The notes beneath the pieces were generated by a model that did no database searches, was not told the origin of the DNA, and was given only the letters and a program-made list of their open reading frames with translations. A stretch of 54,426 nt of DNA, the filler included, from Jimgerdemannia flammicorona (lineage: Eukaryota), in assembly GCA_003990765.1 (NCBI GenBank). It is 2 parts of 2 records of this genome, joined end to end, with 100 filler letters (N's around TTAATTAATTAA, not from the genome) between each part and the next. Parts side by side here need not be neighbours in the genome. Positions count along the whole stretch, not along the records: positions 1 to 27,176 come from RBNJ01000656.1; 1 more part is not named here. One strand, 5' to 3'. How positions within the stretch are numbered: the stretch's first letter is position 1; the number at the start of each line of letters is the position of its first letter. This document shows positions 14,200-44,606 of the stretch, in pieces. The position numbers were made by a program, and so were the translations under genes.

Positions 14200-14540
14200 A
14201 CTTCTTGCCTTAGTAGTCAAACTTGAGTACCTGTTGACTGATGTCAACAACTGCATTCATTTCCTTCATCCAGTTGGTTCCAAGAATTATATCATAGGTG
14301 ACAGCTTCAGTGACAATAGCTTTTGGGATAGAGAACTGAATGTGTCCCAGGGAGATGGTAATATTTTGTACTTCTCCAAGGGGTTGAGTTTGGGCTCTAT
14401 CTGCCACTATGATGCTGAGGTTGGATGGGCCATCAATGGGTCATTGGAGGGTGTCCAGGAACTATTTGGCAATGACACAGACAGCTGCTCCTGTGTCTAT
14501 GAGAATCTTCAACTTTTGTCCTCTAATATCTCTGTATAAG
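14200..14540 (-). pseudogene. Aspartic protease of element B
   Basis: LIDTGAAVS and DIILGTNWM. Confidence 0.88.
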
Positions 14541-16216
14541 TAGGTGCTAATATGTCTTTCCATGGCCTGAATAGGAATGGAAGCTGGTTCTTGCTATGGG
14601 ATGAGAACTCAGCCAGTGCTAGACCTGGTGGTTCTTAGCAATTTGTTTCAGACTCTAGCTGGTGTCAGTTGCAGAAACTGCAGGAGGGGGACTTCCATCT
14701 TGGCCTCTTGAATCTTCTACCAGGCTTCATTATAGATACCTCTAGGTATGGTCTTTGGGGTGTACTTCTTCTTGGGCTTTAGAGCAGCAGGTTCCCATTC
14801 TTTTTGTTCCATTTCTTCATCTTCTAGTGATAACTCATTTGTCTCAGGAACAAAAGGGGAGGGGGTTCAGTGAGGTATTTCTACCTGTGCCTCTTCATGT
14901 TCTTCATCCTCCTCTTGGATAATTCTTCTGCTGATGTTTCTGGATGGCCTTCCTCCAGATCTCTTCCTCTTCTCTGCTGGGTAGACTGTTTTTTGGATGG
15001 TAACTTTGGTATGATATAAGTCTAGGTCACTATAGTCTTCACTATTACTGGCTTCCTCGAAATCTTCAACAGGATGAGCTTCTGTCCTCTCGTACTGAGT
15101 GTCATTCCTTCAGTTTGGTGGTTCTGAATCCCTTTGGTCACTTCTTTTATTGTCACATTCAGTGGCATAGTATCTGAATTGCCCACAGTAGAAGCATTGG
15201 ACTTGGGCTCTGTCTCAGACAGAGTACCTTCTTTCTTCCTGCTGATAATTCCTATTATCTATTGGTGGATAACCTTGGTTCCTCTGTGGTGGGTGTCCTC
15301 TGTTGTCTTGGTAGCCCCAATTTTTGTATATGGTAAGTTTTTCAATCTGTCCAACCAATCAGTCCAATTTGGAGGTAAGGTCTTAGATTTTGCTTCTGTC
15401 CTTCTTTCCTTCCTTGCCTGGCCTTCTTTCTTCAGATCTTTCTTGCTCTTAAAGGAGTCCTTGTAGGTTTTAGACCAGGATGTCTTCTTTATCTTCTTTC
15501 TTATCATGATCACTCCAGATAGTTCCTTGTCTAACATCTAAGAATCCTTGGGCTGCATCTACTTACTCTTCAGACCTTCTAATGCCTAGAGTGCAGACAT
15601 ACTGAGCAATGTTTGGGGGAATTCCATTCATGAAGATCATTGGACCTATGATATCCTGATTGGTGACATTAAACCTGGCAGCATACATTCTCTTCTGGAT
15701 TCTTGTGAAGAAGGCTCTGAGTGATTCTCCAAGATTCATCTTCATCCCTATGATGGATTCCTGAGCCTTGTGGTGGGTTTCATTTCCTGCATACTTTTCA
15801 ACGAGCCAGTGGACCATGGCCTCATATTCTAACTCATAAGGCATTGCTGCTTATATCTGTCTTACCAGTTCTGAATCTGGGTTGTTTGCTGTTTAATGGA
15901 AAATTCCTCTGACTGGTTCTCTGAGCTGAGCCTTGTGGATGGTGATTTTTCTTTCATCCAAGAGATTTCTCAAGGCTGTGATTCCTTCAATTCAATTATG
16001 GAATTCTCTGGGATCTTCCTCCAGATATCCTCCAAAGGTTGGCAATGAGGTGGCCATTTCATCATCACTTTCGTCTGATTCTGATTCACTTTCTGAGCTA
16101 TAACTGGAGATAGGGGTGCTTGGGTATCTTGAGGATGGTGTTCTGGACCTTGGACTCTTGGACTGCCCTTTATTACCGAAGTCTATAGTGTTAACAATAT
16201 AATGTCACCAACCTCC

Positions 16217-19200
16217 TCAACCAATGCCCCGGGGGCCCAACCCCCCTCTCTCAACCTTCCCCTGCCCAAGCACCACCCGATTGCCCACCACCTGAACCCT
16301 CCCATCACTCTTCTGGGAGATACACTGCACCAAACCCCTGTAGTACCCCCCACCCATACCCCAACCCCACCACCAGCTATTTAAAATGTCCAACAGCAGC
16401 CATTCCCACTGTGCCACCTTTTCACCAACCCCAACCTGACACCTGTCCTCAAATACATGCACCCAATGCCCCGCCAACCCAACCCACATAGCCAAGGCCC
16501 AACCAAGGATCAGCCATTCATCCCCGACCCCCCCCACTAAACGCTGGCGAAGCTCTCCCCATCTCCCCCCTCCCTCCCCTCCTTCAGTCCCCAACCCTAA
16601 CCTATCCCTTACACCTCTCCAAAACTCCCCCAAAACCTCACACTCGCCAAGCCAATGTTCAGGCATTTGTACCACTCCCCCCTCCTGACTGATATTGAAA
16701 CAATCCTCGCACTCGAATACCCCACTGGCCACCAAGTGACCAGACCGATAATTCAGCATCACATTCCGCCATAGGATTCGCCACCATGCCAACCAGAACT
16801 TGGGGGGCAGCCACTGCCTCACCTGTCTGCTCCAAAGCCAGAGCCCATTCCAATCCCATTCTTCCCTGATTCCAACCCTCTGCCAGGCTTCAGGCCACAG
16901 GTCTCCACCTAGGCCTCGCAGGCACTCCAGGCCCTCGCCAAGCTGAAAGTCCTCCACCAGAACACCGCCCACTAGAAGCCTGTCCCATCTCCACATCTGC
17001 GGTCCCCAAACCTCCTCGGCCTCGTCGCCTCGCCACCGAAGGCTGATTTTCCTAGCACCTTCCACTGCTCCCCACCAAAAGCCAGTAAACCGCATCTTCC
17101 GGCTCCCTTCCATGGCCACCATTGCGAGCAGATCGCCGGAGCCACCACGTGGGGAGTATCGAACCTCCCACAACCTCTGCATGAGTGGCACCCACTCCTG
17201 ACCTTGAAGCTCACTTGCCCTCCTTAGCCACCAGGCCCTCAGACATAAAAGCCGCTTATTAAAGTCCACTAAGCCCAGTCCACCTCATTCCAAAGGCAGT
17301 GTGAGCACCTCCCAACCAACCTGGCTCTGCCGCCCTCCCCAAATCCACGACCTCGCCATCTTCAACAACCCCTTAACCACCTACAGTGAGAAATCCAAGT
17401 GGTATCCAACATACCACAGCTTTGGCATCCAGTACACATTCAACACCATCACCCTTCCAGCAAGGGACATATGCCAGCCTCCCCATTGCATCAAGACATC
17501 ACCCTACTCCAGCAGTTTACGGTCCCACCATGCCCGGGGGAGAAGAGACCCGAACACTGAGAAGTAGATCCCCAAGTAGCGCACTGGATCACCAGCTGGA
17601 ACCACCATTCCAATAATATCACCACTTACAATTCCAGCACCCAGCACCATCATTTCACATTTGTGCCAGTTCAATTTAGCACCAGAACCCCGCTCATACC
17701 ATTCCACCGTCCTCTGCAGCTCTCCCACATCCCCCAAGGAACCCAGTCCGACCACCATGTCATCGGCAAAGGCCCCAACCTTCCAGTTCACCCCCAAAAT
17801 GTCCAATCCTCCAATCTTATGCCGAATCCTGTCCAGTAGTGGCTCTAGGGAAAGGGCATACAATATGGGTGACAAGGGGTCCCCTTGTGGCACCCCTTGG
17901 CCCAGGGGGAAGGTCACCCCCCGGTGGCCATTGATGACCAATGCCACCTGACTGTCCTCCAAGAGGCTAATCAACGAACCTCGGAACCCCGGGGGGATAC
18001 CAATCCGCTTCAGCACTCCCTGCAGCCATATTCTCCGCACTCTATCATAAGCCTTCTCCTGGTCCAGAAATACCAATCTGCCATCCACCCCTATAGCCCG
18101 GGTACCTTCAATCACCCCATGAACCCAGGCCATCCCATCTCGAATCAACCGGCCACTGACAAACCCACATTGCTCCAAACCAAGCATCTGCTGTGCGATC
18201 CCTTGCAACTGCAGCACCAAGATCTTCGTCACCAGTTTGCGGTCCATGTTCAGAAGCATGATTGGCCTCCAGTTCTTCCAATCCTCCCTCCTGCCCTTGT
18301 TCTTATACAGCAAGGAGACCAGCCCCAAGCGCTGTCCCCCAATCCAGGCACCAGACTGGAGAACTTCATCACACATAGCCACCATTTCTTCTAGTACCTC
18401 ATGCACCCCCGTCATCTTCTGCCAAAAATCCCAGGGGAGTCCATCTTCTCCTGGGGCTGTCCCTTTACTCGTAGAGGCCACCACCTTGCGAATCTCCTCG
18501 CTACCCACTGGGTCCCCCAATGCCATAAGTCCCAAGGCAGGGTCCGGGTGCCAATCCTCCAGCTGCCTTTCAATGTCCAGAGCATCCAGTCCCCCTTCCT
18601 GCTCACTCTAAAGGTTTCCCCACCGGGTTCGCAATAGGCCCAGAATCGCCAGAGTCCCCACCACCAGCTCGCCATCCTCATCCAAAACTCCCTCCCACCG
18701 CTGCCTCGTTCGTCATACCTGTAGCAGCCGTGACAAGAACCTGGTAGGTCTCTCCCCTTCCTCAAGCCCCTGCCATCACAAGCGGGCCACCATCCCCTGT
18801 AACTGCTCCTCTTCCTCCCTCCGTAGTACCCCTTTAAGCTCCTCCACCTCCTGCCGCATCCTCGCAATTCGCCAATCAGCCTCGGCCCTATCCTCCAGCA
18901 CACCAGCCCATCGCTCCATGAGCCCTGCCAAGCGCCGCGATGCCCACATCACCCGCCGCCTTCGCTGAGCACTCTTTCCTTTTCCCACTTCCCGCCAATA
19001 CCCCTGAGCCTTTATCTTCAACCTTCTCCAGCAGTCTCCAATTGCCAGCCCTTGATCCTGCCACCTGCCGACAGCGCCAACCACCTCTGCTTCCCAACCC
19101 TCCCACAATGCCCTATCCTCCAAAAAGGAAGAATTTATCCGCCAATGTCCAGGCCCATCCTCATTTCCCCCAAACCTCCCCCCTCCAAGTAAACCCCAGT

Positions 19201-19879
19201 GATCAGACCATGGACACCACATGACTCCCAGCACTGTCCAGACATCTGCTCCCCAACACTCTGCTGTTAGAACCCAGTCAATCCTAGAGCCCAGTCCTGC
19301 TGCCCAATGAGTATACACCTGCCGGTCAGCCCAAAAATATCTCCCTGAGTCTACTAAAGAACACAACCTTTCCATCTCCAACCAGTCCACCTATCCACCA
19401 CTTTCACCTCACATGCCTCTCTCTCCATCAGTTTTGTCCAACTCCTTATCCCATACCATGTTGAAGTCTCCCCCCATACAGTCAAACCCAACTTCCCCCA
19501 ATAAACCAGTCTCCTTCAATCAGCGAATCCAATCCACCCTCTCCCCTCTCTCAGCCGGGCAGTAACAAGACCCAACCATCAGCGAGCCCCATCCAGGCCT
19601 CTTCCATACTCTCAACACCACCCGAGACCCCCAATGTCCAATGTCCCCAATGTCCCCCATCCCTTTCCGAACAAGAATACCGACTTTCCCCCTCCAAACT
19701 GCTGCACCCCCCCATTCCTTAGTCCAATTCTGTAAGTCCACATCTGCATCATACCAAACATCCTGTAACAAGAAGAGGTCCGCATCCAGACCCCAAAGCC
19801 AGCCAAAGATGAACTTCCTCCTAGCTGCCCCCCGTAACCCATTAATGTTCAGTGAGAATATCCTAGTTGTACTGTTCAT
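16217..19879 (-). pseudogene. LINE ORF2: APE endonuclease, RT, C-terminal CCHC
   Basis: SLNINGL, GDFN, SRIDW, SDH; PGEDGLP, NWRPIMLLN, LDQEKAYDRV, GVPQGDPLSP, FADD; CEDC...EHWLGEC. Broken by a few stops/frameshifts. Confidence 0.92.
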
Positions 19880-19910
19880 ATTGAGTAGATATTGTAAAAG
19901 AGACCTTAAC

Positions 19911-21838
19911 CTATAATTCCATGCTCATCTCATCCCTCGCCAAGTCCAAGAGCCGCTCTGCTTCCACTTCACCCTCCACAATATCCCGTGCATCCAGTGC
20001 CCCCAAGATTTCCTGACACTCCACCCTGTCCACCTCCTCCATATCTGCCCTGTAATCCAAGCAAACTGCACGCCACTTCTCTAGTCCCTTCCTCGAGTTC
20101 CACAAGACAAGTGCCCTGTCACTCACAATCCTTCTAAGCTCCTCCTCTCGCTGATCATCAACCTGATACTCGACTGACTCCAGGAGGACAGCCAGGATCT
20201 CATTTCTCATCTTCCTCGGCACCTCTTCCCTGCATAGAATCTCCTCCCAATGCCTCTCCTCCATCACCCTGAAGTCCTCACCCCCCAACTCTTTGGCCGC
20301 TACCCCTTCCAGGGTCTTCCACATCCACTTCTCTTCATCTACCGCCTCCGCCACCCCCTGAGCAATTCATCCCCCATCCACCTCGGGGTCCACCAGTGCG
20401 CTCCTCCTCCCTGACTCATCCCACTCCTCATCCGGCACATCCATCAGCTCCTCCTCATCGCCCGCCCCATTTGGGACACTATACTGAGGGTGCCCACCTT
20501 CTCCCATTTCGGCATCCACCTCCAAGTGATCCTCCCTCCGCTCCCCGACCCCAATCCCAGCCCCGCCCTGGGCCATCTCTCCCCCTTCAGACCAGGCGCT
20601 CTCCTGTAGCCCTGCAGTCCCTTCCCCGGAGCTTCCACCAGCCCTACCCCCGCCCAACGTTGCCAACAACTCCTTCTGAATCTTCCTCCCCTGCATCTTC
20701 TCCCAGGCCCCCTTCGCCATCCGAACCTTCTTCCCATCCACCTCCCCCACTACCGTCCTGGCCTCAAACTCCATCCAGGCTGATCTCCTCCTCGCAACTG
20801 CCCCTTCCAGGTCCTCCAGAGCCTCCAACAGGTCCTCCTCCTCCTCCTGAGTCCCCTTTATCCTAGTGACCTTACACTCCACCGGTCCCCACCTCAGCGC
20901 TGCTGGCCAGTCCCTCGACTTCCCCATATTCTCCTTTCCAGCCCGTCTCACCCTGACATCGACATCCCCAGTTCTAAGCTCTGTGCCCTCCCAGACCTTA
21001 AACCCAACATCCACAATCTCGCCATACTCCTTGATCGCCTCCACAACCAACTCCCTGGTCCTTTCCTTCGACACTGTAGGGAGGTCCAACACCGTCAACT
21101 GCACCACCCGGGGGTCCCAGCACATACACCGGGCCATAGGGACCACAACCCCGCCAACCATCACCCCCTTCTCCATGGCTGCCAACAAGGCGTCTTCCTC
21201 CTCAAACCCCACCTCAACCCCTTCCTTTCCCCTCAAGAACTTCACCGACACCGCTCCCTTAGCCTCCTGCGCCACCAGCCCCAGAATCATCCTCGCTGTC
21301 ACTGCCAAGCCCTGGAAGCACATCGTGACTGCGAATTCGGACCTTGACTTCTTGAGTAACGGGGCCGACACCATGCCCGTCACCCCATCCGCCAGGTCCC
21401 CGGGCCTCGTGCCCACTCCAAGTCCCGAATTGCTAACTGCTGTCACATCTGGATTTTTGCCAGATTCCCAGTCACAGCCCCATCAACAGTCACATCTCCA
21501 GCCCCTACTCCGGCCCCTTCCCTACCACCAGAAGTACCCTGAGGTGCACCTCCCTGACCCCCAGCAGTAGCCATCAATGCCTTCCCCAGGCCCAGCCAAC
21601 CATCCAGCCCAGAGGCCATCTTCCCTATCCTGACCTTGTCAGCAAAGGTTGACCTCTCCCCTCCTCTCTGCCTCAGACCTCCCCTCCCTCCACTGCTGGG
21701 GCCTCGGCTAGCCATCGAGGCCCCTGGCATCTCCAAACCATCTCCCCTCCTCTCCACCTGCTGCCAGCCAAAGGCACCGTCACCCCCCTGGCCAGTACGC
21801 TCACCAGATCGATCATTGCCGTCCGTGTTGTTAGTCAT
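19911..21838 (-). pseudogene. LINE ORF1, copy 1
   Basis: Three ORF-track pieces (21443-21838, 20367-21446, 19911-20354) are colinear with the intact 638-aa ORF1 of copy 2; one frameshift and one TGA. Confidence 0.88.
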
Positions 21839-22354
21839 CAGACACCAAAAACGTTGTAAAAAGTGTTGTCCGAGTCTTGTGTCACCCGAATGTTACTGGT
21901 GAAAAGGCGTGTTCCTCGTTCTGGACCTTGGATGAAGTGAGATAAGTCTAGGTATTCTTGTGGGAGCTACTTCTAACTCTACAAGGGGTTGTGGTAAAGG
22001 TTCTATTAGTGAAATTGGTGGAACTGGTATGGGGCATCTGGCTGTAAGGTCTCAGGTTCATATAATAAAATCTTCTTGTTCTTGTGCAAGTTCTTTGAAA
22101 TCTCTAGCAGGACTGTCTGTATTGTCTGGTTGATTTGGTTGGGGATTTCGGGCTATACTACCTTCTGGTTCTGGTTGGGATCCTTCTAATACTGGGTAGT
22201 TGGCAAGTCTTAATATGATTACTTCTCTTTCTATCCAGATGCTGGTAACAACTGGTTCTCCTGTAGTGGCAGAGGTTGGTATTGTATCAAATATATCCAG
22301 TTTGACTGTGGGTTCTTGTGAGCTGAAAAGTTACATCAATTTGAAATCTTTCCA

Positions 22355-23654: not shown

Positions 23655-23940
23655 ATATATATATGACATATGTATATATATTTCTTATCTGTAAACAATA
23701 AAGTCTTAGATATATATAAAGAATTTAAAGTAATTATAGAGAATGAAACAGAATGTAGAATATATACTATATACTCAAATAATAGATATAAATATATTAA
23801 TAGTATATTCAAGCAGTACTAAGAAAATATAGTATATATCCTCTATTGAAATATCTTAGTTATAGTAACTCAATATTTGATGATATAGTTGCAGTCTAAT
23901 TATATTATTATATAAATATTTTTAATATATAAAGTATATA
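23655..23940 (+). pseudogene. Ty1/Copia integrase relic, part 2 (continues 7234-7771)
   Basis: VLDIYKEFK..ENETECRI..IYSNNRYKY, cf. FKxxxENxxGxxIxxIRSDNGxEY. Confidence 0.65.
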
Positions 23941-24119
23941 AGATATTAATAAACAATTACTACTTCTCTCTATCTATCTTCCAAGTATTCTATACAAATA
24001 TTATAAGCTCTACTAGTGAAAGCTGATAACAATAAAGACACTTCTCCAATATATAAGCTATACTATATAAAGAAGATATTACATCAATTAAATGTATCAA
24101 ATCTAAGTTTGCTAAGTAA

Positions 24120-25660
24120 TACAAGTAGAATGGGACCCAGAACAGATATCAGTAACATAAGCATCACAACAATGACCATTTTTGTAGTAGAACTAACAAT
24201 AGTAAAGTGAATGATTCTTGTCTTTAATGAAAAGATCAATATTATATAGGTATACTATATAAAGATTTTTTGTGAGAATATAGTCTGGAGAACTACTGGA
24301 AGCCATAGATACAAATAATGAGATACCTTACTATGAAGGATTAAAGAGTTCTAAGAGAGATTACATTTACTCTTTTAAATATACAATAAAAATTATCATC
24401 AATACTATAATAGTGAATGAAGTTTGAAGATATTATATAATCACTATCAATAGATATTTATATCAAAAATTTTCTACCTGAAAGTGCAACTATTCAATCT
24501 CTGAATAAAGTCTAAGAAGAGTATCTAGAATAATGTAAACTGTATCAATAATTGGCAAATTAAGTGAATACTCTTTCTATGCTGACAGATCTCATCAAAG
24601 ATGAAAACAAGGTCCTGAATCTTATATATAGTCTTCTTGAGATATATAATGTAGTTGTTACTACTATCAGAGAATCTGGAAAACTATCAGACTATAAGAA
24701 TATTATTATAAGTCTCTTAAATAAAGAATTAAGACTGGGTGGTAATAATAATAATAATAACAATGAGAAATCCTTTTATAGAGTATGTGAATGAGGTAAA
24801 GTCAAGCTAAAAAAGAGGCAAAGTCAGTAGTATAATAGTCAGCATGATAGTCAATAAGCCAAATTCAATATTAAATACTTTTACTATAATAAGTATAGAT
24901 ACTATAAGTATGACTGTAATTGTAAAAAGATAAAAAATAACAGCCAAGATGAGCATTAATGTTATGAATATTAATAATAATAAAAGTGATAGCAGAGGTC
25001 TATTCTTTACTGAAGAAGCAATCTATCTATATATAGAAAGATATATAGGGGTGAATTTAGAAAATACTTTTATATTGACAAAAAATACTCTAATTACCAG
25101 GTTATCAGTTTTAGTACTATTGCTAATGTAAGCTATATGCTAAGTACTTATATATATAGTGAAGAAGTCTGGTATATAGATTCTAGTCTAATATAGTATA
25201 TGACAATACACTATGAGTATTTCTCTATATATAAGAAGTTCAAGGATCCTATATATATCAAACTGAGTAATAATAATATAATTTATACTCAAGACAAGAG
25301 TAATATTGATATATCTATATAGAAATATTAATAAACTCTCAGATATCTTTATAGATACTATATATACCAGATATGGAAAAGGACCTCTTCTTAATAGACT
25401 GGATGATGGCTTGAGGAAATAAAGGAGTAAATATATATATAAATAGTATAATGGTGATCAATTTAAAGAATAATAAATAGCTAATATATATCAAAAATAC
25501 AGAATCTATATATAATTGACAGTATACTGAATGGTATATCATCTGTATATTTTACAATAGTAACTAATACCTAGTATATATAGTATAAATACTTAGGATA
25601 TATTGGTAAGATGAGCTTAGATTAATTCTCATGCTCCTCTACTATTCTATTATGAATACA
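24120..25660 (+). pseudogene. Second Ty1/Copia relic: gag, zinc knuckle, protease, pre-integrase domain
   Basis: DENKVLNLIYSLLEIYNVVVTTI...SLLNKE (Copia gag), eroded CCHC at 24876-24917, EVWYIDS..MT (~25164-25204), YIPDMEKDLF (~25360-25390), decayed WHxRLGHIG (~25581-25607). Confidence 0.7.
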
Positions 25661-25691
25661 TATAAGTACACAATCTTCAAACCACCAAAAC

Positions 25692-27176
25692 TGTAAGCGC
25701 ACAACCTCCAAGCCACCGAAATTACACATCACCCTCTGAACAAAGCCACTGAAATCACATGCGACCTCCAAACAAATCTGGAAATCACCTGCTTGATCAT
25801 GAAGCTGAGTCAAACCGAAGTCACAGCGCACAAAGCTGAGTCAATACGAAGTCACAGAACACAAGATCTACACAAATGGAACCTTACCAATCAGGACCAA
25901 ATGCATATATACTGAGCACTGAGATGCGTCGAATCAGAAAACCAATACAAACAACAACCACAACTTCCAAACACACAAACATGACCACTGAGATCTACAA
26001 CCGCATCCGTGCTGACATTTGGAATGCCATTGTCAACCGAGCCACACCCCCTCTGCCTCTCATGAATATCCATAGCCTGGCACCCCTCTACTTCATGGAA
26101 GCCTGATGGAATGCCCTGAACATGCTTAGCGAGGCCCACCGAATCGGACAAATCTCAAGCTACTACCAGATCGGCCGCCTCTTGGAAGACATGGTCGAAC
26201 ACCACCACAATACAGACATGACCCAGATGTCTCAACACCAGAAGCTCATCGCCCGCAAACATCGAGAACTCTTCTATGAGTACAACACCTTTATTCCCCG
26301 CCTCCGAGTTACTACCAGCAAAATGGTTGCTACCCTGTCCTATAGCCAAATCGATGACATGATACAAGAAATCAACCACAAGTACCTCGAGTATGTCGAA
26401 ACCACAGACAGAACCTTCCCGCACCCCGATGACCATATCCTGCAAATGCCTCAAGTCGGATATACCATGAAGGACGTCTACGATATAATCCACTTCGATG
26501 AAGACGAAGCAGAAGACAACGACCCCTCTGACGCCGACATGACCTCTAGCCAAGGATCTCTGCCAACCCTGATCACCCTGCCAAACTTGCCGATGAACTT
26601 GCAGCAGTTCATAACCACATACGAGACTTATTGGAACAATGACCACTGGCACGAATACCAACCCACGTTTACCCCCAATTACTTCAACTACAATGAAGAG
26701 ACCGGAGAACACAATCTGTACCTTCAGACAACTCTCGAGATTGAACCAACCACTCCACCACCCAAGTACGAGCGACTTGAATCACAGCCACCAGCTTACT
26801 ACAACCCTGTGACTCATAGTGCTGTAACCTATAGAAGGTATGCAGATAGCGAATCCGATGAAAGCGAAGACAGTACACCCATCCTTCGCCCACCAACACC
26901 TTATCCAGCGTACGAAACAGATGATGCTATCCTGTGGGACGGAGATGAAGTCCCAATGTATTACTACCTCAGCCAACAAGGAAAAGTAATCCATGAACCA
27001 TTATTCCTAGATGACTACTTCATCAGAGATGATGCAATCGATGGTGATGTCATCGAAGACTACCCAGATAGTGCCTAAACCTATAAATAGTCTAGCAGTC
27101 ATAGTATAGATAGATTAGCCTTGTACGACGTGACTGTGAACTGACTCAGCAGTCAGACGATCTCTTGACATGTCAG
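25692..27176 (+). repeat. Young LTR E (relative of the element C LTRs), truncated by the assembly gap
   Basis: Starts TGTAAGCGCACAACCTCCAAGCCACC like 39808 and 44607; 27040-27176 matches ~40550-40688; CpG-rich; 30-bp tandem duplicate at ~25802-25862. Confidence 0.8.
25876..27078 (+). CDS. LTR-embedded ORF of unknown function (~400 codons with one in-frame TGA at 26104-26106; 318-aa open part 26122-27078)
   Basis: The ORFs 25876-26106 and 26122-27078 are in the same frame. Helical-looking N-domain with QISSYYQIGRLL, and an acidic, Pro/Tyr-rich C-terminal half. Confidence 0.7.
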
Positions 27177-27276
27177 NNNNNNNNNNNNNNNNNNNNNNNN
27201 NNNNNNNNNNNNNNNNNNNNTTAATTAATTAANNNNNNNNNNNNNNNNNNNNNNNNNNNNNNNNNNNNNNNNNNNN
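27177..27276. other. Assembly gap with artificial linker (N44-TTAATTAATTAA-N44)
   Basis: Symmetric 100-bp block containing a six-frame stop spacer. Confidence 0.95.
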
Positions 27277-29520
27277 TCCGAACAAGAATACCCACTTTCC
27301 CCCTCCAGACTACTGCACCCCCCCATTCCATAGTCCACTCCTGTAAATCCACATCCACATCATACCAAACATCCTGCAATAAGAAGAGGTCCGCATCCAG
27401 ACCCCGAAGCCAACCAAAGATGTACTTCCTCCTAGCTGCCCCCTGTAACCCATTAACATTCAATGAGAATATCCTAGTTATATTGTTCATATTGAATAGA
27501 TATTGTAGAAGTGACCCCAACCTATAATTCCATGCTCATCTCATCTCTCGCCAAGTCCAAGAGCTGCTCAGCTTCCACTTCCCTCTCCTCAATATCCCAA
27601 GCATCCAGTGCCCCCAAGATCTCCTGACACTCTACCCTGTCCACCTCCTCTATATCTGCCCTATAATCCAAGCAGACTGCATGCCACTTCTCCAGTTCCT
27701 TCCTTGAGTTCCACAAGACAAGTGCCCTCTCACTTGCAATCTGTCTAAGCTCCTCCTCATGCTGATCATCAACCTGATATTCAACCGACTCCAAGAGGAC
27801 TGTCAGGATCTCGTTCCTCATCTTCCTCGGCACCTCTTTCCCATGTAGAATCTTCTCCCAATGCCTCTCCTCCATCACCCTGAAGTCCTCACCCCCCAGC
27901 TCTTCAGCCACTACCCCTTCCAGGGTCTTCCACATCCACTTCTCCTCATCGACCACCTCTGCCGCCCCCTGAGCAATTCGTCCCCCATCCACCTCGGGGT
28001 CCACCAGTGTGCTCCTCCTTACTGACTCATCCCACTCTTCATCCGGCACATCCATCAGCTCCTCCTCGCCTCCTGCCCCACTTGGCACACTATACTGAGG
28101 GCACCCACCATCCCCCATTTCAGCATCCACCTCCAGGTTAACCTCCCTCTCCTCCCTACCTCCAATCGGAGCCCCACCCTGGGCCATCTCTCCTCCTTCC
28201 GCCCAGGCACTCTCCTGCAACCCTGCAGTCCCCTCCCTGGAGCTTCCACCAGCCCTATCCCCATCCAACTTTGCCAACAACTCCTTCTGAATCCTCCTCT
28301 CCTGCATCTTCTCCCAGGCCCCTTTCTCTATCCGAACCCTCTTCTCATCCACCTCTCCCACTACCGTCCTGGCCTCGAACTTCTTCCAGGCTAATCTCCT
28401 CCTTGCAACAGCCCCTTCCAGGTCCTCCAGAGCTTCTAGCAGGTCCTCCTCCTCCTCCTGAGTCCCCTTCACCATAGCGACCTTACACTCCACCTGTCCC
28501 CACCTCAGTGCTGCTGGCCAGTCCCTTGACTTCCCCATAATCTCCTTTCCAGCCAGTCTCACCCTGACATCGACATCTCCAGTTCTAAGCTCCATGCCCT
28601 CCCAGACCTTGAACCCCACATCCACAATCTCACCATACTCCTTTATCGCCTCTACAACCAACTCCCTGGTCCTTTCCTTCGACACTGTAGGGAGGTCCAA
28701 CACTGTCAACTGCACCACCCAGGGGTCCCAGCACATACACTGAGCCATAGAGACCACAACCCTGCCAACCATCACCCCCTTCTCCATGGCTGCCAACAAG
28801 GCATCTTCCTCCTCGAACCCCACTTCAACCCCTTCCTTTCCCCTCAAAAACTTCACCGACGCTACTCCCCTAGCCTCCTGCACCACCAGCCCCAAAATCA
28901 TCCTCGCCGTCACTGCCAAGCCCCAGAAGCACATCGTGACCGCAAATTCAGACCTCGACTTCTTGAGTAATGGGGCTGACACCATGCCCGTCACTCCATC
29001 CGCCAGGTCCCCGGGCCTCGTGCCCACTCCAAGTCCTGAATTGCCAACTGCCATCACATCTGGATTTTTTGCCAGATCCCCAGTCACAGCCCCATCAACT
29101 GTCACATCTCCAGCCCCTACTCCAGCCTCTTCCCTACCACTAGAAGCACCCTGGGGTGCACCTCCCTGATCCCCGGCAGTAGCCATCGATGCCTTCTCCA
29201 GGCCCAGCCAACTATCCAGCCCAGAAGCCATCTTCCCCATCCTGACCTTATCAGCAAAGATCATCCTCTCCCCTCCTCTCTGCCTCAGACCTCCCCTCCC
29301 TCCGCCACTGGGGCCCTGGCTAGCCATCGAGGCCCCTGGCATCCCCAAACCATCTCCCCTCCTCCCCACCTGCTGCCAGCCAAAGGCGCCGTCACCCCCC
29401 TGGCCAGTACGCTCACCAGATCGATTGTTGCTGTCCATGTTGTTAGTTGTTGGACACCAAAAATGTTGTAGAAAGTGTTGTCTGAGTCTTGTGTAACCTG
29501 AATGTTATCGGAGAAAGATG
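27277..29520 (-). mobile_element. LINE copy 2 (5' UTR, ORF1, start of EN; remainder lost in the gap)
   Basis: Colinear with copy 1 ~19667-21910. Confidence 0.9.
27522..29438 (-). CDS. LINE ORF1 protein, open (638 aa)
   Basis: Uninterrupted ORF directly upstream of the EN start; Gly-rich N-terminus, RRM-like middle, acidic helical C-terminus; no CCHC knuckle seen. Confidence 0.85.
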   Translation of the reverse strand: MDSNNRSGERTGQGGDGAFGWQQVGRRGDGLGMPGASMASQGPSGGGRGGLRQRGGERMIFADKVRMGKMASGLDSWLGLEKASMATAGDQGGAPQGASSGREEAGVGAGDVTVDGAVTGDLAKNPDVMAVGNSGLGVGTRPGDLADGVTGMVSAPLLKKSRSEFAVTMCFWGLAVTARMILGLVVQEARGVASVKFLRGKEGVEVGFEEEDALLAAMEKGVMVGRVVVSMAQCMCWDPWVVQLTVLDLPTVSKERTRELVVEAIKEYGEIVDVGFKVWEGMELRTGDVDVRVRLAGKEIMGKSRDWPAALRWGQVECKVAMVKGTQEEEEDLLEALEDLEGAVARRRLAWKKFEARTVVGEVDEKRVRIEKGAWEKMQERRIQKELLAKLDGDRAGGSSREGTAGLQESAWAEGGEMAQGGAPIGGREEREVNLEVDAEMGDGGCPQYSVPSGAGGEEELMDVPDEEWDESVRRSTLVDPEVDGGRIAQGAAEVVDEEKWMWKTLEGVVAEELGGEDFRVMEERHWEKILHGKEVPRKMRNEILTVLLESVEYQVDDQHEEELRQIASERALVLWNSRKELEKWHAVCLDYRADIEEVDRVECQEILGALDAWDIEEREVEAEQLLDLARDEMSMEL

Positions 29521-32500
29521 CCCATCTCCTCCCTCCCTCTCCTCCCCTAACCCCCAACCCTATTCTATCCATAATACATCTCCAGAACTCCCCCAAAATC
29601 TCATACTCGCCAAGCCAATGTTCAGGCATTTGTACCATTCCTCCCTCCTGACCAACATTGAAACAATCCTCACACTCGAATACCCCACCATCCACCAAGT
29701 AATCAGACCAATAGTTCAGCATCACATTCTGCCATAGAATCTGCCACCATGTCAACCAGAACTTGGGGGGCAGCCACTGCCTCACCCATTTGCTCCAAAG
29801 CCAGAGCCCATTCCAGTCCCACTCTTCCTCAATTCCAACTCTCTGCCAGGCTTCAGGCCACAGGTCTCTACCTAGGCCTCGCAGACACTCCAGACCCTCG
29901 CCAAGCTGAAAGTCCTCCACCAGAACACCACCCAATAGAAGCCTGTCCCATCTCTACATCTGCAGTCCCCAAATCTCCTTGGCCTCATCACCTCACCACC
30001 GAAGGCCAATTTTCTTAGCACCATCCACTGCTCTCCACCAAAAGCCAGTAAACCACATCCTCTGGCTCTCTTCTATGGCCACCATTGCAAGCAGGTCACC
30101 GGAGCCACCATGTGGGGAGTATCAAACCTCCCACAACCTCTGCATGAGTGGCACCCACTCCTGATCTCTAAGCTCACTTGCCCTCCTTAGCCACTAGGCC
30201 CTCAGACATAAAAGCCACTTAGTAAAGTCCACTAAGCCTAGCCCACCTCTTTCCAAGGGCAGTGTGAGCACCTCCTAACCAATCTGGCTCCACCGCCCTC
30301 CCCAAATCCATGACCTCACCATCTTCAACAACCCCTTAACCACCCAAGGCAGGAAATCCAAATGATATCCAATATACCACAGCTTCGGCATCCAGTATAC
30401 ATTCAACACCATCACCCTTCTGGCAAGGGATATATGCCGGCCTCCCCATCACATCAAGACATCACCCCACTCCAGCAGTTTACAGTCCCACTATGCCCAG
30501 AGAAGAAGAGATCTGAATACCGAGAAGTAGATCCCCAAGTAGCGTACTGGTTCACCAGCTGGAACCACCATTCCAATAACATTGCCACCAACAATTCCAG
30601 TGCCCAGCACTAGTGTCTCACATTTGTGCCAGTTCAGTTTAGCACCAGAACCCCACTCATACTATTCCACCATCCTCTGCAACTCTCCAACATCCCCCAA
30701 GGAACCCAGTCTGACCACCATATCATCGGCAAAGGCCCCCACCTTCTAGTTCACCCCTAAAACATCCAAACCTCCAATCTTATACCAAATCTTGTCCAGT
30801 AGTGGCTCCAGGGAAAGGGCATACAATATGGGTGACAAGGGGTCTCCTTGTGGTACCCCATGGCCCAGGGGGAAGATCACTCTCTGGTGGTCATTGATGA
30901 TTAATGCCACCTGACTGTCCTCTAAGAGGCTGATCAATGAACCTCAGAACCCCGGGGAGATACCAATCTGCTTCAGCACTCCCTCCAACCATATTCTCCA
31001 CACTCTATCATAAGCCTTCTCCTGGTCCAGAAATACCAATCTGCCATCCACCCCTGTAGCCCGGGCATCTTCAATCACTATGAACCCAGGCTGTCCTATC
31101 TTGAATTAACTGACCACTGACAAACCCACATTGCTCCAAACCAAGCACCTGCTGAGTGATCCCTTGCAACCTCAACACCAAGATCTTCATCACCAGTTTA
31201 CAGTCCATGTCCAGAAGCATAATTGGCCACCAGTTCATCCAATCCTCCCACCTGCCCTTGTTCTTATATAGTAAGGAGACTAGCCCCAAGCACTGTCTCC
31301 CAATCCAGGCACCAGACTGAAGAACTTCATCATACATAGCAATCATTTCCTCTAGTACCTCATGCATCCCTGTCATCTTCTGCCAAAAATCCCAGGGGAG
31401 TCCATCCTCTCCCAGGGCTGTCCCTTTACTCATAGAGGCCACTATCTTGCAAATCTCCTCGCTGCTCACCAGGTCCCCCAATACCACAAGTCCCATGGCA
31501 GGGTCCAGGTGCCAATCCCCCAGCTGCCTTTCAATGTCCAGAGCATCCAGTCCCCCTTCATCCTCACTCCAAAGGTTCTCCCACTGAGATTACAATAGGC
31601 CCAAAATCGCTGGGGTCCCCACCACCAGCTCACCATTCTTGTCCAAAACTCCCTCCCACCACTGCCTCATTCGTCATGCTTGTAACAATCATGACAAGAA
31701 CCTGGTAGGTCTCTCCCCTTCCTCAAGCCCCTGCCATCGCAAGCGGGCTACCATCTCCTGGAGCTGCTCCTCCTCCTCCCTCCATAGCACCCCTTTGAGC
31801 TCCTCTACCTCCTGCTGGATTCTCGCAATATGCCAATCAGCCTTGGCCCTATTCTCCAGCACACCCACCCATCTCTCCATGAGCACTGCCAGATGCTGCG
31901 AGGCCCACATCATCTACCACCTTCGATGGGCACTCTTTCCTTTCCCCACTTCTCTCCAATATCCCTGAGCCTTCATCTTCAACCTTCTCCAGTGGTCCCC
32001 AATTGCCAGTCCTTGATTCCGCCACCTGTCGATATCTCCAACCACCTCCATTTCCCAACCCTCCCACAATGCCCTATCCTCCAATAAGGAAGAATTTAGC
32101 TGCCAATGTCCGGGCCCATCCTCATTTCCCCCAAACCTCCCCCCTCCAAGCAACCCCCAGTGATCAGACCATGGACACCATACAACTCCCAGCACCATCC
32201 AGACATCTGCTCCCCAATACTCTGCTGTTAGAACCCAGTCAATCCTAGAGCCCAGTCCAGCTGCCCAGTGGGTATATACCTGCCAATCAGCCCAAAAATG
32301 TCTCTCTGAGTCCACTAAAGAACACAATCTTTCTGTCTCCAACCAGTCCACCAACCTACCACTTTCACCTTGCATGCCTCTCTCTCCATCAGTTCTGTCC
32401 AACTCCTTATCTCATACTATGTTGAAGTTCCCCCCCATACAGTCAAACTCAACTTCTCCCAATAAACCAGCCTCTTTCAATCTGCGAATCCAATCCACCC

Positions 32501-34870
32501 TCTCCCCTCTCTCAGCCAGGCAGTAACAAGACCCAACCATCAGTGAGCCCCATCCAGGCCTCTTCCATACTCCCCACACCACCCATGACCCCCAATATCC
32601 AATGTCCCCAATGTCCCCCATCCCTTTCCAAACAAGAATACCTACTTTCCCCCTCCAAACTACTACACCCCCCCATTCCTTAGTCCAATCCTGTAAATCC
32701 ACATCTGCATCATACCAAACATCCTGTAACAAGAAGAGGTCTGCATCCAGACCCCGAAGCCAACCAAAGATGTACTTCCTCCTAGCCACCCCCCGTAACC
32801 CATTAACATTCAATGAGAATATCCTAGTTGTACTGTTCATATTGAATAGACATTGTAGAAGAGACCCCAACCTATAATTCCATGCTCATCTCATCTCTCA
32901 CCAGATCCAAGTGCTGCTCAGCTTCCAATTCATTCTCTGCAATATCCCGAGCATCTAGTGCCTCCAACATTTCCTGATACTCCACCCTGTCCACCTCCTC
33001 CATATCCACCCTGTAATCCAAGCAGACTGCACACCACTTCTCTAGTCCCTTCCTCGAGTTCCACAAGAAAAGTGCCCTGTCACTCACAATTCTTCTAAGC
33101 TCCTCCTCTCACTGATCATCAACCTGATACTCAACGGACTCCAGGAGAACAGCCAGAATCTCATTTCTCATCTTTCTCAGCATCTCTTCCCTATGTAGAA
33201 TTCCCTCCCAATGCCTCTCCTCCATCACCCTGAAGTCCTCACCCCCCAGCTCTTCAGCTGCCACCCCTTTCAGGGTCTTCCACATCCACTTCTCCTCATC
33301 TACCGCCTCTGCCACCCCCTGAGCAATTTGTCCCCCATCTACCTCGAGGTCCACCAGCGCACTCCTCCTCACTGACTCATCCCACTCCTCATCCAGCACA
33401 TCCATCAGCTCCTCCTCACCTTCTGCCCCATTCAGAACACTATACTGAGGGTGCCCACCTTCACCCATTTCAGCATCTGCCTCCAAATTATCCTCCCTCC
33501 TCTCCCTGACTCCAATCTGAGCCTCGCCCTGGGCCATCTCTCCCCCTTCAGCCCAGGCACTCTCCTGCAACCCTGCAGCTCCCTCTCCGGAGCTTCCACC
33601 AGCCCTACCCCCACCCAACTTCGCCAACAACTCCTTCTGGATTCTCCTCTCCTGCATCTTCTCCCAGGCCCCCTTCTCCATCCGAACTCTCTTTCCATCC
33701 ACCTCCCCCACCACTGTCCTGACCTCAAACTCCTTCCAGGCTAATCTCCTCCTCACAACTGCCTCTTCCAGGTCCTCCAGAGCCTCCAACAGGTCCTCCT
33801 CCTCCTCCTGAGTCCCCTTCACCCTAGTGACCTTATACTCCACCGGTCCCCATCTCAGCATTGCTGGTCAGTCCCTTGACTTCCCCGTATTCTCCTTTCC
33901 AGCCAGTCTTACCCTGACATCGACATCTCCAGTTCTAAGCTCCATGCCCTCCCAGACCTTAAACCCAACATCCACAATCTTGTCATACTCCTTGATTGCC
34001 TCCACAACCAACTCTCTGGTCCTTTCCTTCGACACTATAGGAAGGTCTAACACCATCAACTGTACCACCCGGGGGTCCCAGCACATACACTGGGCCATAG
34101 GGACCACAACTCTGCCAACTATCACCCCCTTCTTCATGGCCGCCAACAAGGCATCTTCCTCCTCAAACCCCACCTCAACCCCTTCCTTTCCCCTCAAGAA
34201 CTTCACTGACACTGCTCCCTTAGCCTCCTCCACCACCAGTCCCAAAATCATCCTCGTCATCACTGCTAAGCCCCGGAAGCACATCGTGACCGTGAATTCT
34301 GACCTCGACTTCTTGAGTAATGGGGCCGACACCATACCTGTCACCCTATCCGCCAGGTCCCCAGGCCTTGTGCCCACTCCAAGTCCCAAATTGCCAATCA
34401 CCATTACATTTGGATTTTTTGCCAGATCCCCAGTCACAGCCCCATCAACAGTCACATCTCCAGCCCCTACTCCGGCCCCTTCCCTACTACCAGAAGTACC
34501 CTGGGGTGCACCTCCCTGACCCCCAGCAGTAGCCATCGATGTCTTCCCCAGGCCCAGCCAACCATCCAGCCCAGAAGTCATCTTTCCCATTCTGACCTTG
34601 TCAGCAAAGGTCGACCTCTCTCCTCCTCTCTGCCTCAGACTGCCCCTCCCTCTGCCGCCAGAGCCTCGGCTAGCCATCAAGGCCCCTGGCATCTCAAACC
34701 ATCTCCCCTCCTCCCCACCTGCTGCCAGCCAAAGGCACCATCACCCCCCTGGTCAGTATGCTCACCAGTTCGATCATTGCTATCTATGTTGTTAGTTGTC
34801 AAACACCAAAAATGTTGTAAAAAGTATTGTCTGAGTCTTGTGTCACCTGAATGTTACTGGTGAAAGGTGT
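29521..34870 (-). mobile_element. LINE copy 3, degenerate, lacking the last ~400 bp
   Basis: Colinear with copy 1 from ~16558 to its 5' end; fragmented ORF1 and ORF2. Confidence 0.9.
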
Positions 34871-37800
34871 GAAATCCAAATGATATCCAACATACCATAG
34901 CTTTGGTATTTAGTACACATTTAACACCATCACCCTTCTGGCAAGGGACATATGCTGGCCTCTCCATCTCAGCAAGACATTACCCCACTCCAGAAGTTTA
35001 CAGTCCCACCATGTCCAGAGAAGAAGAGATCCAAACACTGAGAAGTAGATCCCCAAGTAGTACACTGGTTCATCTGCCGGTACCACCATCCCAATAACAT
35101 TGCCACCAACAATTCCAGTACCCAGCACCAGTGTCTCACATTTGTGCCAGTTAAGTTTAGCATCAGAACCCCGCTCATACCATTCCACAGTCCTCTATAA
35201 CTCTCCCACATCTCCCAAGGAGCCCAGCCTGACCACTATATTATCAGCAAAGGCCCCCACCTTCCAGTTCACCCCTAAAATGTCCAAGCCTCCAATCTTA
35301 TGCCAAATCCTGTCCAGTAGTGGCTCCAGGGAAAGAGCATACAATATGGGTGACAAGGGGTCCCCTTGTAGCACCCCATGTCCTAGGGGAAAGGTCACTC
35401 CCTGGTGGTCATTGATGACCAATGCTGCCTGACTGTCCTCTAAGAGGCTGATTAATGATCTTCGGACCCCTGGCGGGATGCCAATCTGCTTCAGCACTTC
35501 CTCCAGCCACATTCTCCACACTCTATCATAAGCCTTCTCTTGGTCCAGAAACACCAATCTGCCATCCACCCCTGTTGCCTGAGCACCTTCAATCACTCCA
35601 TGAATCCAGGCTGTCTCATCTCGAATCAACCAACCACCAACAAACCCACGTTGCTCCACACCAAGAACCTGCTGAGTGATGCCTTGCAACCTCATTACCA
35701 AGATTTTCGTCACCAATTTGCAGTCCATGTTGAGAAGCATAATTGGCTGCCAGTTCTTTCAGTCCTCTTGCCTAATCTTGTCTTTAAAGAGCAAAGAGAC
35801 CAGCCCTAAGCGCTGTCTCCCAATCCAGGCACCAGACTGAAGAACTCCATCACACATAGCAGTCATTTCCTCTAGCACCTCACCCACCCCAGTCATCTTC
35901 TGCCAAAAATCCCAGGGAAGCCCATCCTCTCCCAGAGCTATCCCCTTACTTATTGAGGCCACAACCCTGCAAATCTCCTCACCACTCACCGGGTCCCCCA
36001 ATGCCCCAAGTCCCATCATAGGGTCCAGGTGCCAATCCCCCAGCTGTCTTTCAATGTTCAGGGCATCCAATCTCCCATCCTCCTCACTCCAAAGATTCCT
36101 CCACCGGGTTCGCAGTAGGTCCAGAATCACCAGAGTCTCCACCACCAGCTTGCCATTCTTGTCCAAAACTCCCTCCCACTACTGCCTCATTCATCGTACT
36201 TGTAACAACCATGACAAGAATCTGGTAGGTCTCTCCCCCTCCTCAAGCCCCTACCACTGCAGGTGGGCCACCATTCCCTGCAACTGCTCCTCCTCCTCTC
36301 TGTATAGTACCCCTTTGAGCTCCTCCACCTCCTGCCGGATCCTTGCAATACACCAATCAGTCATGGCCCCATTCTCCAGCACACCTGCCCATCTCTCCAT
36401 AAGTACTGCCAGATGCCGTGAGGCCCACAGCACCCACTGCCTTCACTGGGCACACTTCTCTTTTCCTGTTTCCCTCCAATACTCCTGAGCCTTCGCCTTC
36501 AGCCTTCTCCAGTGGTCTCCAATCTCCAGTCCTTGTTCCTGCCACCTGCCTATATTTCCAACCACCTCCGATTCCCATCCCTCCCACAATACCCTATCCT
36601 CCAACAGGGAAGAATTTAGTCACCAATGTCTAGGCCCATCCTCATTTCCCCCAAACCTCTCCCCTCCAAGCAGCCCCCAGTGATCAGACCACGGACATCA
36701 TACAACTTCCAGCGCTAACCAGACATCTGTTTCCCAACACTCTGCTGTTAGAACCCAGTCAATCCTGGAGTCCAGTCCTGCTGCCCAGTGGGTGTACATC
36801 CGCCGATCAGTTCAAAAATGTCTTCCTGAGTCTACTAGAGAATACAACCTCTCCATCTCCAACCAGTCACCCAACCTACCACTTTCACTCTGCATGCCTC
36901 TCCCTCTATCAGTTCTGTCCAACTCCTTATCCCGTACTATATTAAAATCACCCCCCACACAGTCTAACCCAACTTCTCCCAACACACCAGCCTCTTTCAA
37001 TCTGCGAATCCATTCCACCCTCTCCCCTCTCTCAGCTGGACAGTAACAGGACCCGACTGTCAGTGGGCTCCATCCAGGCCTCTTCCACACTCCCCACACC
37101 ACCTGAGACCCCCAATGTCCAATGTTCCCAATGTCCCCCATCCCTTTCTGAATGAGAATATACACTTTCCCTGCACCCCCCCATTCCTTAGTCCAATCCT
37201 GTAAGTCCACATCTGCCTCATAACAAACATCTTGCAGTAAGAAGAGGTCTGCATCCAGTCCCTTAAGCCAACCAAATATATACTTTCTCCTAACCAACCC
37301 CCATAGCCCATTAACATTCAATGAGAAAATCCTAGTTATACTGTTCATATTGAAGAAATGTTGCAATAGAGACCCCAACCTATAATTCTATGCTCATCTT
37401 ATCTCCTGCCAGATCCAAGTACTGCTCAGCTTCCAATTCACCCTCTGCATTATCCTGAGCATCCAGTGCTCTCAAGATTTCCTGACATTCCACCCTGTCC
37501 ATTTCCTCTATATCAGCCCTATAGTCTAAGCAGACAGCAGGCCACTTCTCCAGTCCCTTCCTCAAATTCTACAAGAAAATTGCTCTGTCACTCACAATCC
37601 TCCTAAGTTCCTCCTCCTGCTAATCATCAACCTGATACTCAACCGACTCCAGGAGGACTGCCAGGATCTCATTCCTCATCTTTCTCGGCACCTCCTCCCC
37701 CCATAGGATCTCCTTCCAATACTTCTCCTCCAACACCCTGAAGTCCTCACCCCCCAGCTCTTCAGCTGCTACCCCTTCTAAGGTCTTCCACATCCACTTC

Positions 37801-39357
37801 TCCTCATCCACTACCTTCGCCACCCCCTGAGCGATTTGTCCTCCATCCACCTCGGGGTCCACCAGCATGCTCCTTCTCACTGACTCATCCTACTCCTCAT
37901 CCGGCACATCCTCTCTCTCTGCCCCATCTGGAATACTATACTGAGGATACACACCCTCACTCATTTCGACATCCACCTCCAAATTGCCCTCCCTCCCCTC
38001 CCCATCTCCAATCTGAACTCCGCCCTGGGCCATCTCTCCCCCCTCAGCCCAGGCACTCTCCCATGACCCTGCAACTCCCTCCCCTGAGCTTCCACCAGCC
38101 CCATCCCCGCCCAACTTCGCCAACAGCTCCTTCTGGATCCTCCTCCTCTGCATCTTTTTCTAGGCCCCCTTCTCTATTCAGATCCTCTTCCCATCCACCT
38201 CCCCCACCACCATCCTGGCCTCAAACTCCTTCCAGGCCAATCTCCTCCTTGCCACTGCCCCTTTCAGGTCCTCCAGAGCCTCCAATAGGTCCTCCTCCTC
38301 CTCTGGAGTCCCCTTCACCCTGGTGACCTTATACTCCACCGGTCTCCACCTCAGTGCCACTGGTCAGTCTCTTGACTTTCCTGTATTCTCCTTCCTAGCC
38401 AGCCTCACCCTGACATTGACATTACCAGTTCTAAGCTCTGTGCCCTCCCAGACCTTGAACTCAACATCCACAATCTCACTATACTCCTTGACCGCCTCCA
38501 CAACCAACTTCCTGATCCTTTCCTTTGATACAGTCGGGAGGTCCAACACTGTCAACTGCACCACTCGGGGGTCCCATCACATGTACTGGGTCATAGGGAC
38601 CACAACTCCACCAACCATCACCCCCTTCTCCATGGCTGCCAACAAGGCATCTTCCTCCTCAAACCCCACCTCAACCCCTTCCTTTCCCCTCAAGAACTTC
38701 ACTGATGCTGCTCTCTTAGCCTCCTGTGCCACCAGCCCCAAAATCATTCTTGCTGTCACTGCCAAGCCCCGGAAGCACATCATGACCATGAATTCTGACC
38801 TTGACTTCTTGAGTAATGGGGCTGACACTATGCCTGTCACTCCATCAGTCAGGTCCCTGGGCCTCATGCCCACTCTATGTCCTGAATTGCCAACTGCCGT
38901 CATATTTGGATTTTTTGCCAGATCTCCAGTCACAGCCCCATCAATAGTCATATCTCCAGCCTCTACTCCGGCCCCTTCCCTACCATCAGAAGTACCCCGG
39001 AGTGCACCTTCCTGACCCCCAGCAGTAGCCATTGATGTCTTCCCCAGGTCCAGCCAACCATCTAGCCCAGAAGCCATCTTCCCCATTCTGACCTTGTCAG
39101 CAAAGGTCAACCTCTCCCCTCCTCTCTGCTTCAGACCGCCCCTCCCTCTGCCACCAGGGCCTCAGCTAGCCATCGAGGCCCCTGGCATCTCCAAACCATC
39201 TCCCCTCCTCCCCACCTACTGCCAGCCAAAGGCGCCATCACCCCCCTAGCCAGTATACTCACCAGTTTGATTATTGCCATCCATGTTATTAGTCATCAGA
39301 CATCAAAAATATTGTAAAAAGTGTTGTCTGAGTCTTGTGTCACCTGAATGTTACTAG
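34871..39357 (-). mobile_element. LINE copy 4, more degenerate, lacking the last ~1.2 kb
   Basis: Colinear with copy 1 from ~17390 to ~21900. Confidence 0.9.
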
Positions 39358-41267: not shown

Positions 41268-41270
41268 ACT

Positions 41271-41282
41271 TAGTAGTAGCAG
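41271..41282 (+). other. Decayed tRNA-iMet-type PBS of element C
   Basis: TAGTAGTAGCAG is the element D PBS TGGTAGCAGCAG with two transitions; lies 3 nt after the LTR. Confidence 0.6.
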
Positions 41283-41299
41283 TTTACAATTTAATTCTG

Positions 41300-44605: not shown

Positions 44606-44606
44606 T

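Follow-up and report, generated by a model that had tools for sequence, protein, structure and literature searches.

Can a long terminal repeat (LTR) of a fungal retrotransposon hold a complete protein gene of its own? The question is raised by positions 25692-27176 (plus strand) of a 54,426-nucleotide stretch of Jimgerdemannia flammicorona DNA, referred to here as the window. An earlier note, made from the sequence alone, had described this segment as an LTR with a gene of about 400 codons in its U3 part. Comparison with other copies in the genome makes it virtually certain that a selected gene lies inside the LTR. Its promoter, its relatives and its role are discussed below with less confidence.

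The repeat and the element that carries it

The window is composed of two contigs of 27,176 and 27,150 bp, separated by a strandless N spacer (27177-27276) that carries a linker with stops in all frames. The physical link between the two halves is without support. The ORF-bearing LTR opens with TGTAAG at 25692 and is located on contig G000:C656 (1-27176), while element C, an ORF-less relative, sits on the other contig, C657. Position 27176, formerly taken for the end of the repeat, is the end of the contig. Copies having both ends are 2,061-2,093 bp long and terminate in CA; the segment makes up the initial 1,485 bp of a TG...CA repeat of about 2,062 bp, and some 580 bp of the LTR are absent from the window. 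The 5' terminus (25692-25744, plus strand) is 81% identical over 53 bp to the element-C LTR at 39808-39860. The resemblance resumes at 27024-27176 (plus strand, 82%), a stretch that contains the last ~17 codons and the stop of the ORF, a TATAAA at 27082 and a TGACTCA at 27142. The common TGTAA terminus and the return of homology near 27040 had both been noticed earlier, and both are borne out.

The CpG observed/expected ratio is 0.72 in the LTR segment and 0.00 in the 1.5-kb flank. Relative to its flank the insertion is thus recent, as had been concluded from its CpG retention. On average, 68 transitions and 5.5 transversions in ~1,485 bp separate the window copy from its 29 nearest relatives. 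The insertion site (~23700-25691) is a heavily decayed, CpG-free element, copia-like by eye. Elsewhere in the window, GC-rich repeat copies at 16217-21904 and 27277-39355, tandem or nested, have an RT domain, end near a long poly(T) and are probably LINE-like. Two more gypsy families (46804-52838, minus strand; L108-L119) have a dUTPase, recognized by Pfam in the first and by eye in the second. A 3-kb repeat (1123-4168 and 11698-14749) was considered as an LTR and rejected, as it is pol.

A DNA search in which the best 40 of 4,590 candidates were scored gave, besides the window copy, 39 full-length matches at 94-96%. When 55 loci were classed automatically, 14 were found after a PPT, nine before a PBS and six as solo LTRs with a 5-bp TSD; one of the others had both ends without a TSD, and 25 were missing one end. 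An additional solo LTR, L021, was recognized by eye. The window copy has no PPT upstream and reaches the contig end downstream, so that it is either a 5' LTR or a solo LTR. The element at C4334:3366-13598 has the ORF-bearing repeat at both ends, as its 5' and 3' LTR, with 73 transitions and 3 transversions between the two over 1,642 sites. The comparison of copies proposed in the earlier note therefore gave an ORF in both LTRs of a full element. The full-length matches and the PPT, PBS and solo-TSD flanks reject a one-off insertion into an LTR and an ORF lying outside the terminal repeat.

The ORF-bearing LTR belongs to an autonomous fungal Ty3/gypsy chromovirus. The fungal nature of the genome is borne out by 44 matches to PF04082, a family of fungal transcription factors, as opposed to none in 14 control genomes. 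The internal region encodes a zinc knuckle, dUTPase, protease, RT, RNase H, integrase and chromodomain; Pfam recognizes the dUTPase, protease, RVT_1, RT_RNaseH, SH3_Tf2-1 and Chromo, as well as rve as a partial match below the cut-off. The PBS is complementary over 12 nt to the 3' end of the initiator tRNA-Met of this genome. Self-priming of the Tf1 type was rejected, because there is no good complement within the LTR and the tRNA match is better. All four public runs that were compared, from three studies, contain related sequence over 28-30 of the 30 bins of the LTR and gag start. One ORF-bearing LTR (L092, G000:C16056) has a PPT before it and a PBS after it, as in a tandem element sharing one LTR. 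At L035, L036, L063, L074 and L085 young ORF-bearing LTRs lie within or beside older LTRs of the same family. A 231-codon open frame at L034:4059-4751, upstream of the recognizable gag, is possibly a long N-terminal extension of Gag.

The reading frame, its selection and its decay

The long frame at 25876-27078 is interrupted by a single in-frame stop, at 26104, as described in the earlier note. Its start had to be moved. Only 9 of 30 close copies have the ATG at 25876, which coincides with a CpG site, while the ATG at 25981 is found in all 30. The 47 in-frame codons before the latter are unconstrained, having no excess of changes at third positions (0.19 versus 0.22 events per site). A start at 25876, giving about 400 residues, was accordingly rejected, and the accessory gene is a frame of 365 codons at 25981-27078 (plus strand). 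The terminal stop is conserved in 29 of 30 close copies. The stop at 26104 is found in four of the 30 copies; the other 26 have a sense codon, as had been anticipated, and 11 of the 30 have an uninterrupted 365-codon frame. The ORF is situated wholly within the LTR, downstream of the PPT and outside the internal region, unlike the position of conserved aORFs.

Among close copies, 658 of 1,431 changes are CpG transitions. Since decay is mostly CpG deamination, the test for selection was restricted to transversions. It used 18 older copies, leaving out the locus of the query itself and L063, which consists of two nested copies. In the ORF frame 48 of 129 distinct transversions are synonymous, compared to 19.6 expected (z 7.1), which gives a transversion omega of 0.30. 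The other two sense frames have omega values of 0.99 and 2.10, and one antisense frame has the expected shadow (z 3.8). Both halves of the ORF are constrained, with omega values of 0.45 and 0.24. Restricted to the close copies, the test does not reach significance (p 0.19 and 0.07). A database relative, P0001, retains the ORF frame at 65-66% identity.

At six CpG codons able to decay to either a stop or a missense codon, 14 nonsense and 15 missense outcomes were counted, and the older copies with the ORF have decayed severely and contain many stops. Taken together with the omega of 0.30, these outcomes show that purifying selection acted on the ORF in the replicating lineage and that inserted copies decay neutrally. 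As part of the repeat, the gene is copied by reverse transcription into both LTRs, and each solo LTR keeps it. The earlier suggestion that solo LTRs spread the gene stands insofar as solo LTRs carry it; most copies, however, are decaying, with no selection after insertion.

Putative promoters and element C

The ORF is preceded by motifs that might form a promoter, P1. A pair of TGAGTCA sequences (25806-25812 and 25837-25843, plus strand), presumably AP-1/Gcn4-type sites, is followed by TATATA (25906-25911, plus strand; LTR position ~214), the putative TATA box. The two TGAGTCA sites are conserved in 28 and 29 of 29 close copies, respectively, and in 10 of 18 older copies each, where the other states are nearly all single or double transitions. 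The TATATA is unchanged in all 29 close and all 18 older copies. Shuffling the 288-bp stretch upstream of the ORF 3,000 times produced two or more TGASTCA sites in 7 cases. Constraint at the motif sites does not clearly exceed that of the surrounding sequence, with a transversion at 1 of 20 sites versus 39 of 208. This arrangement makes it likely that the ORF has a promoter of its own.

Further motifs are found downstream of the ORF stop. The TATAAA at 27082, just past the stop, is TATAGA in 11 of 15 older copies, and the TGACTCA at 27142 follows it. Beyond the contig end there are a second TATAAA at LTR position ~1576, conserved in all 25 close ORF-type copies and in 10 of 11 older ones, and an AATAAA at ~1698. 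The LTR would thus have two promoters, P1 with its TGAGTCA pair and TATATA for the ORF, and P2, formed by the TGACTCA and the TATAAA at ~1576, for the genomic RNA. If the P1 transcript ends at the LTR's own poly(A) signal, each LTR would be a complete transcription unit.

Element C (39808-46374, plus strand) is a relative from which RT, RNase H and integrase are deleted. Its internal region has 84-86% identity to that of the full element and retains gag, dUTPase, protease and part of the chromodomain. The RT-integrase deletion is common to all eight C-type 3' LTR loci, whereas 11 of 11 informative ORF-type 3' LTR loci, one of them the reference, are intact across that junction (15 were examined, of which four were too short). 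In the C-type U3 a replacement of ~720 bp is bordered by the opening ~50 bp of the LTR and by the final ~17 ORF codons. C-type LTRs lack the TGAGTCA pair and the TATA at ~214 but have the downstream TATAAA. Stops are present in all six frames of the C-type U3, each in at least half of the copies. The possibility that it is a second gene with a common tail was rejected, as there is no codon periodicity (12, 11 and 8 events, p 0.66, in a test of low power). In element C itself ~300 bp of the 3' LTR end are duplicated (46078-46374), and the element is flanked by a matching 5-bp duplication, judged by eye. A genome search gave 1,860 candidates for C-type elements.

The simplest reading is that element C is a non-autonomous derivative of the ORF-LTR family that lost the gene and P1 together. 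It would amplify on P2 with proteins borrowed in trans, making the gene and P1 dispensable. The joint loss of the ORF and of RT-integrase fits a trans-acting product. The loss of the ORF and the loss of autonomy were probably one ancestral event, which counts once. Because C-type elements amplified without P1, P2 would drive the genomic RNA, and we infer that the ORF lies in U3. Of the earlier claim to this effect, the position inside the LTR and upstream of both later TATA candidates (LTR ~1390 and ~1576) is confirmed; the assignment to U3 comes from the motifs.

The protein, its relatives and its possible role

The U3 protein is acidic (pI 4.3) and lysine-poor, with an acidic, aromatic C-terminal half. 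The highest 19-residue Kyte-Doolittle mean is 0.77, so that there is no hydrophobic or transmembrane segment, and the copy analysed has no cysteine. The N-domain (residues ~1-170), with a pI of 5.8, is not basic, and a search of the protein for NLS-like motifs gave none. Windows 309-356 satisfy a rule for acidic residues with W, F or L that we take to mark activation-type tails, and P0001 satisfies it too. Two AlphaFold models have pLDDT values of 32 and 48 and are unreliable; both are helical in residues 1-170. A Foldseek search of viral and PDB structures with the pLDDT-48 model gave no match at E≤0.001. Sequence and profile searches of Pfam, PHROGs and the PDB gave no match, the ESM Atlas no usable match, and metagenome contig scans no confirmed relative. 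Weak PDB sequence matches were to SKA1 (E 0.18-0.34). Two ideas were abandoned: that of a PPxY late domain, both motifs being altered in P0001, and that of a DUF1016-type helical module in the N-domain, a likeness for which Pfam gave no support.

Database protein searches gave two true relatives, P0001 and P0002 (91-94%). P0003 (E 2e-15) was rejected as a bacterial-type RTX repeat protein whose score came from six repeated weak stretches, and P0004 as a match in composition. Weak profile matches in flanks pointed to two gypsy families of the same genome, A and B. Family A has a 171-codon ORF3 between integrase and the PPT. A decayed copy of it with six stops is present in the window (9099-9614, minus strand), ~40 bp before the PPT and the 3' LTR, which starts at 9059. 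Family B has a 1.54-kb LTR with an LTR ORF of ~250-300 codons and a different PBS, and bears no nucleotide likeness to the ORF-LTR family beyond 13 nt. Upstream of the LTR ORF, all 18 copies have TATAWA at ~156, and 17 of the 18 have TGASTCA before position 140. First-look counts gave 5,172 candidates for the ORF-LTR family and 5,896 for family B (L147-L170, e.g. L149:989-2529), many copies of which are flanked by runs of AT dinucleotides.

A combined profile found 11 further database proteins, one of B type and ten of family-A type, the latter at 51-84% identity. Pairwise hhalign comparisons of the U3 gene with the other two families gave E values of 0.015 and 0.11, and 0.0018 with a deeper profile, while pairwise BLOSUM shuffles with the U3 protein were not significant (478 and 125 of 2,000). 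Profiles made from A only and B only were run on 3,498 six-frame segments. At least 4 bits were reached by 86 and 82 of 168 N-domain segments, copies that are not independent of one another, and by 10 and 6 of 3,323 other segments. The protein P0012 beats 300 of 300 decoys against the U3-gene profile and again against the family-B profile. A test of low power gave no selection signal in the A and B frames among the closest copies (z -0.5 and 0.95). The family-A ORF3 and the family-B LTR ORF are probable distant relatives of the U3 gene through the helical N-domain. All three families have acidic tails, with 12-18 D/E in the last 40 residues.

We tentatively favor the interpretation that the protein is a trans-acting, transactivator-type regulator of the element's own transcription. 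By analogy, it would have a role like that of Tas and a position like that of MMTV sag, with a helical N-domain and a tail resembling an activation domain. This is suggested by the helical domain, probably common to the relatives, together with the acidic aromatic tail, by the putative two-promoter layout and by the loss in element C. Acidic tails, however, are too common to prove much. The non-basic N-domain and the lack of an NLS-like motif make the protein a poor candidate for a DNA binder, which argues against a regulator.

The protein might instead be expressed from every LTR as a counter-defence factor against DNA methylation, RNAi or heterochromatin silencing, in the manner of VANC of VANDAL or of foamy-virus Bet. 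This seems unlikely, but it is the most serious of the alternatives. The heavy CpG deamination of repeats by the host, evident from the 658 transitions and the CpG-free flank, implies strong silencing pressure. Both families with an LTR ORF are very abundant, and anti-silencing aORFs have been proposed for other elements in the part of PMC11728184 cited here. Against it, the many stops of older ORF-bearing copies are evidence that there was no lasting protection in cis, and no likeness to known suppressors was found.

Rather improbable is a post-transcriptional or particle helper, either in RNA export or processing, as with CERV or Rev/Rem, or as a partner of Gag, integrase or dUTPase that would serve as an acidic chaperone or mimic nucleic acid. 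A precedent is CERV, an orphan protein required for genomic RNA export of the LTR retrotransposon Cer1 according to the part cited of PMC10309623. The low pI of the whole protein would suit a mimic or chaperone, and its action in trans would account equally well for the loss in element C. Nevertheless, the protein has few basic residues for RNA binding, and the one element scanned has no branch-site and acceptor pattern between pol and the ORF.

The ORF would have a different setting if it were part of a long R region, with P1 as the sole promoter of the autonomous element. The TATATA at ~214, unchanged in 47 of 47 copies, would be expected then. However, C-type elements have amplified with the downstream TATAAA and without P1, the TATAAA at ~1576 is well conserved in ORF-type copies, and a genomic RNA started at P1 would place a 365-codon ORF before gag. 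The arrangement is very unlikely. A captured host gene or domesticated cassette serving the fungus would go with the very high copy number and with the 11 of 30 open copies, yet there is no selection against stops after insertion. The database searches gave no named cellular homologue either, although a divergent single-copy one could hide, as the genome searches scored the best 40-150 candidates. Such an origin is still harder to credit. An Env-like or fusogenic protein is scarcely credible despite the env position, after integrase, of the related family-A ORF3, because there is neither a hydrophobic segment nor, in the copy analysed, a cysteine.

Returning to the trans-acting regulator, a broader and more doubtful proposal is that several gypsy lineages share an undescribed family of trans-regulators that moved from the env position into U3. 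Each LTR, even a solo one, might then be a self-contained, signal-responsive unit, with promoter, gene and poly(A) site, that switches the element on or shields it from silencing. Such a circuit would resemble that of complex retroviruses but have evolved independently in retrotransposons, and a genome would have hundreds of copies of it or more.

The usual view of LTRs is that they do not encode proteins, and the divergence between two LTRs serves as a neutral clock. Of the 2-kb LTR described here, more than half is a gene formerly selected in the replicating lineage. Solo LTRs are generally regarded as dead ends, but if P1 is real they are complete genes. A literature search covering titles and the starts of abstracts, with partial coverage of subscription journals, gave no retrotransposon with a gene inside its LTR.

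Among fungal elements, the dUTPase chromoviruses of Postia, Phanerochaete and Tuber have the same Ty3/gypsy order with a dUTPase and a chromodomain, but the part cited of PMC2864245 mentions no LTR-encoded gene. The crapaud element of Podospora is likewise a fungal chromovirus with subfamilies differing in the U3 half of the LTR. As described in the part cited of PMC10787394, its LTRs are 339-443 bp long and it has two internal ORFs, whereas the U3 variation found here is the presence or absence of a 1.1-kb gene. Retrotransposon aORFs, such as the plant env-like and antisense ORFs, the Tekay 5' ORF, that of Boty and the ORF3s of bdelloids, are described as internal, either ahead of gag or between pol and the 3' LTR, in the cited parts of PMC7264820, PMC11728184 and PMC5408684. 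The U3 gene resembles them as a conserved orphan extra gene present in most copies of a family and, as in rotifers, probably common to different lineages. The family-A ORF3 is by position an ordinary 3' sense aORF. Unlike the internal aORFs of those sources, the U3 gene lies inside the LTR, with a putative promoter of its own and a poly(A) signal.

The closest parallels are found in retroviruses, although no sequence match of the U3 protein to Tas, Sag or Nef was found. In foamy viruses two promoters, one internal and one in the LTR, are activated by Tas (PMC3185757, in the part cited). The fungal LTR would similarly have two promoters, and foamy viruses have 3' accessory ORFs, one reaching into the 3' LTR. 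The foamy internal promoter, however, is situated within env, and Tas is encoded outside the LTR, whereas the fungal gene and its putative promoter are wholly within the LTR.

The three families described here form a natural series, in which the gene, probably homologous in all three, lies after integrase in one and inside U3 in two, and is lost together with RT-integrase in a parasitic derivative. This series bears on the route by which accessory genes come to lie in LTRs, as they do in MMTV and lentiviruses, and on the roles of orphan retrotransposon ORFs. The U3 region of MMTV contains an ORF for Sag and Naf and a U3 promoter, according to the part cited of PMC9412291. As in MMTV, the fungal element has a complete ORF, apparently in U3, that is copied to both LTRs, and a U3 promoter, here putative. 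The resemblance is one of position: the fungal element is a chromovirus without env, its protein has neither a transmembrane segment nor a detected sequence match, and a superantigen would be meaningless in its host.
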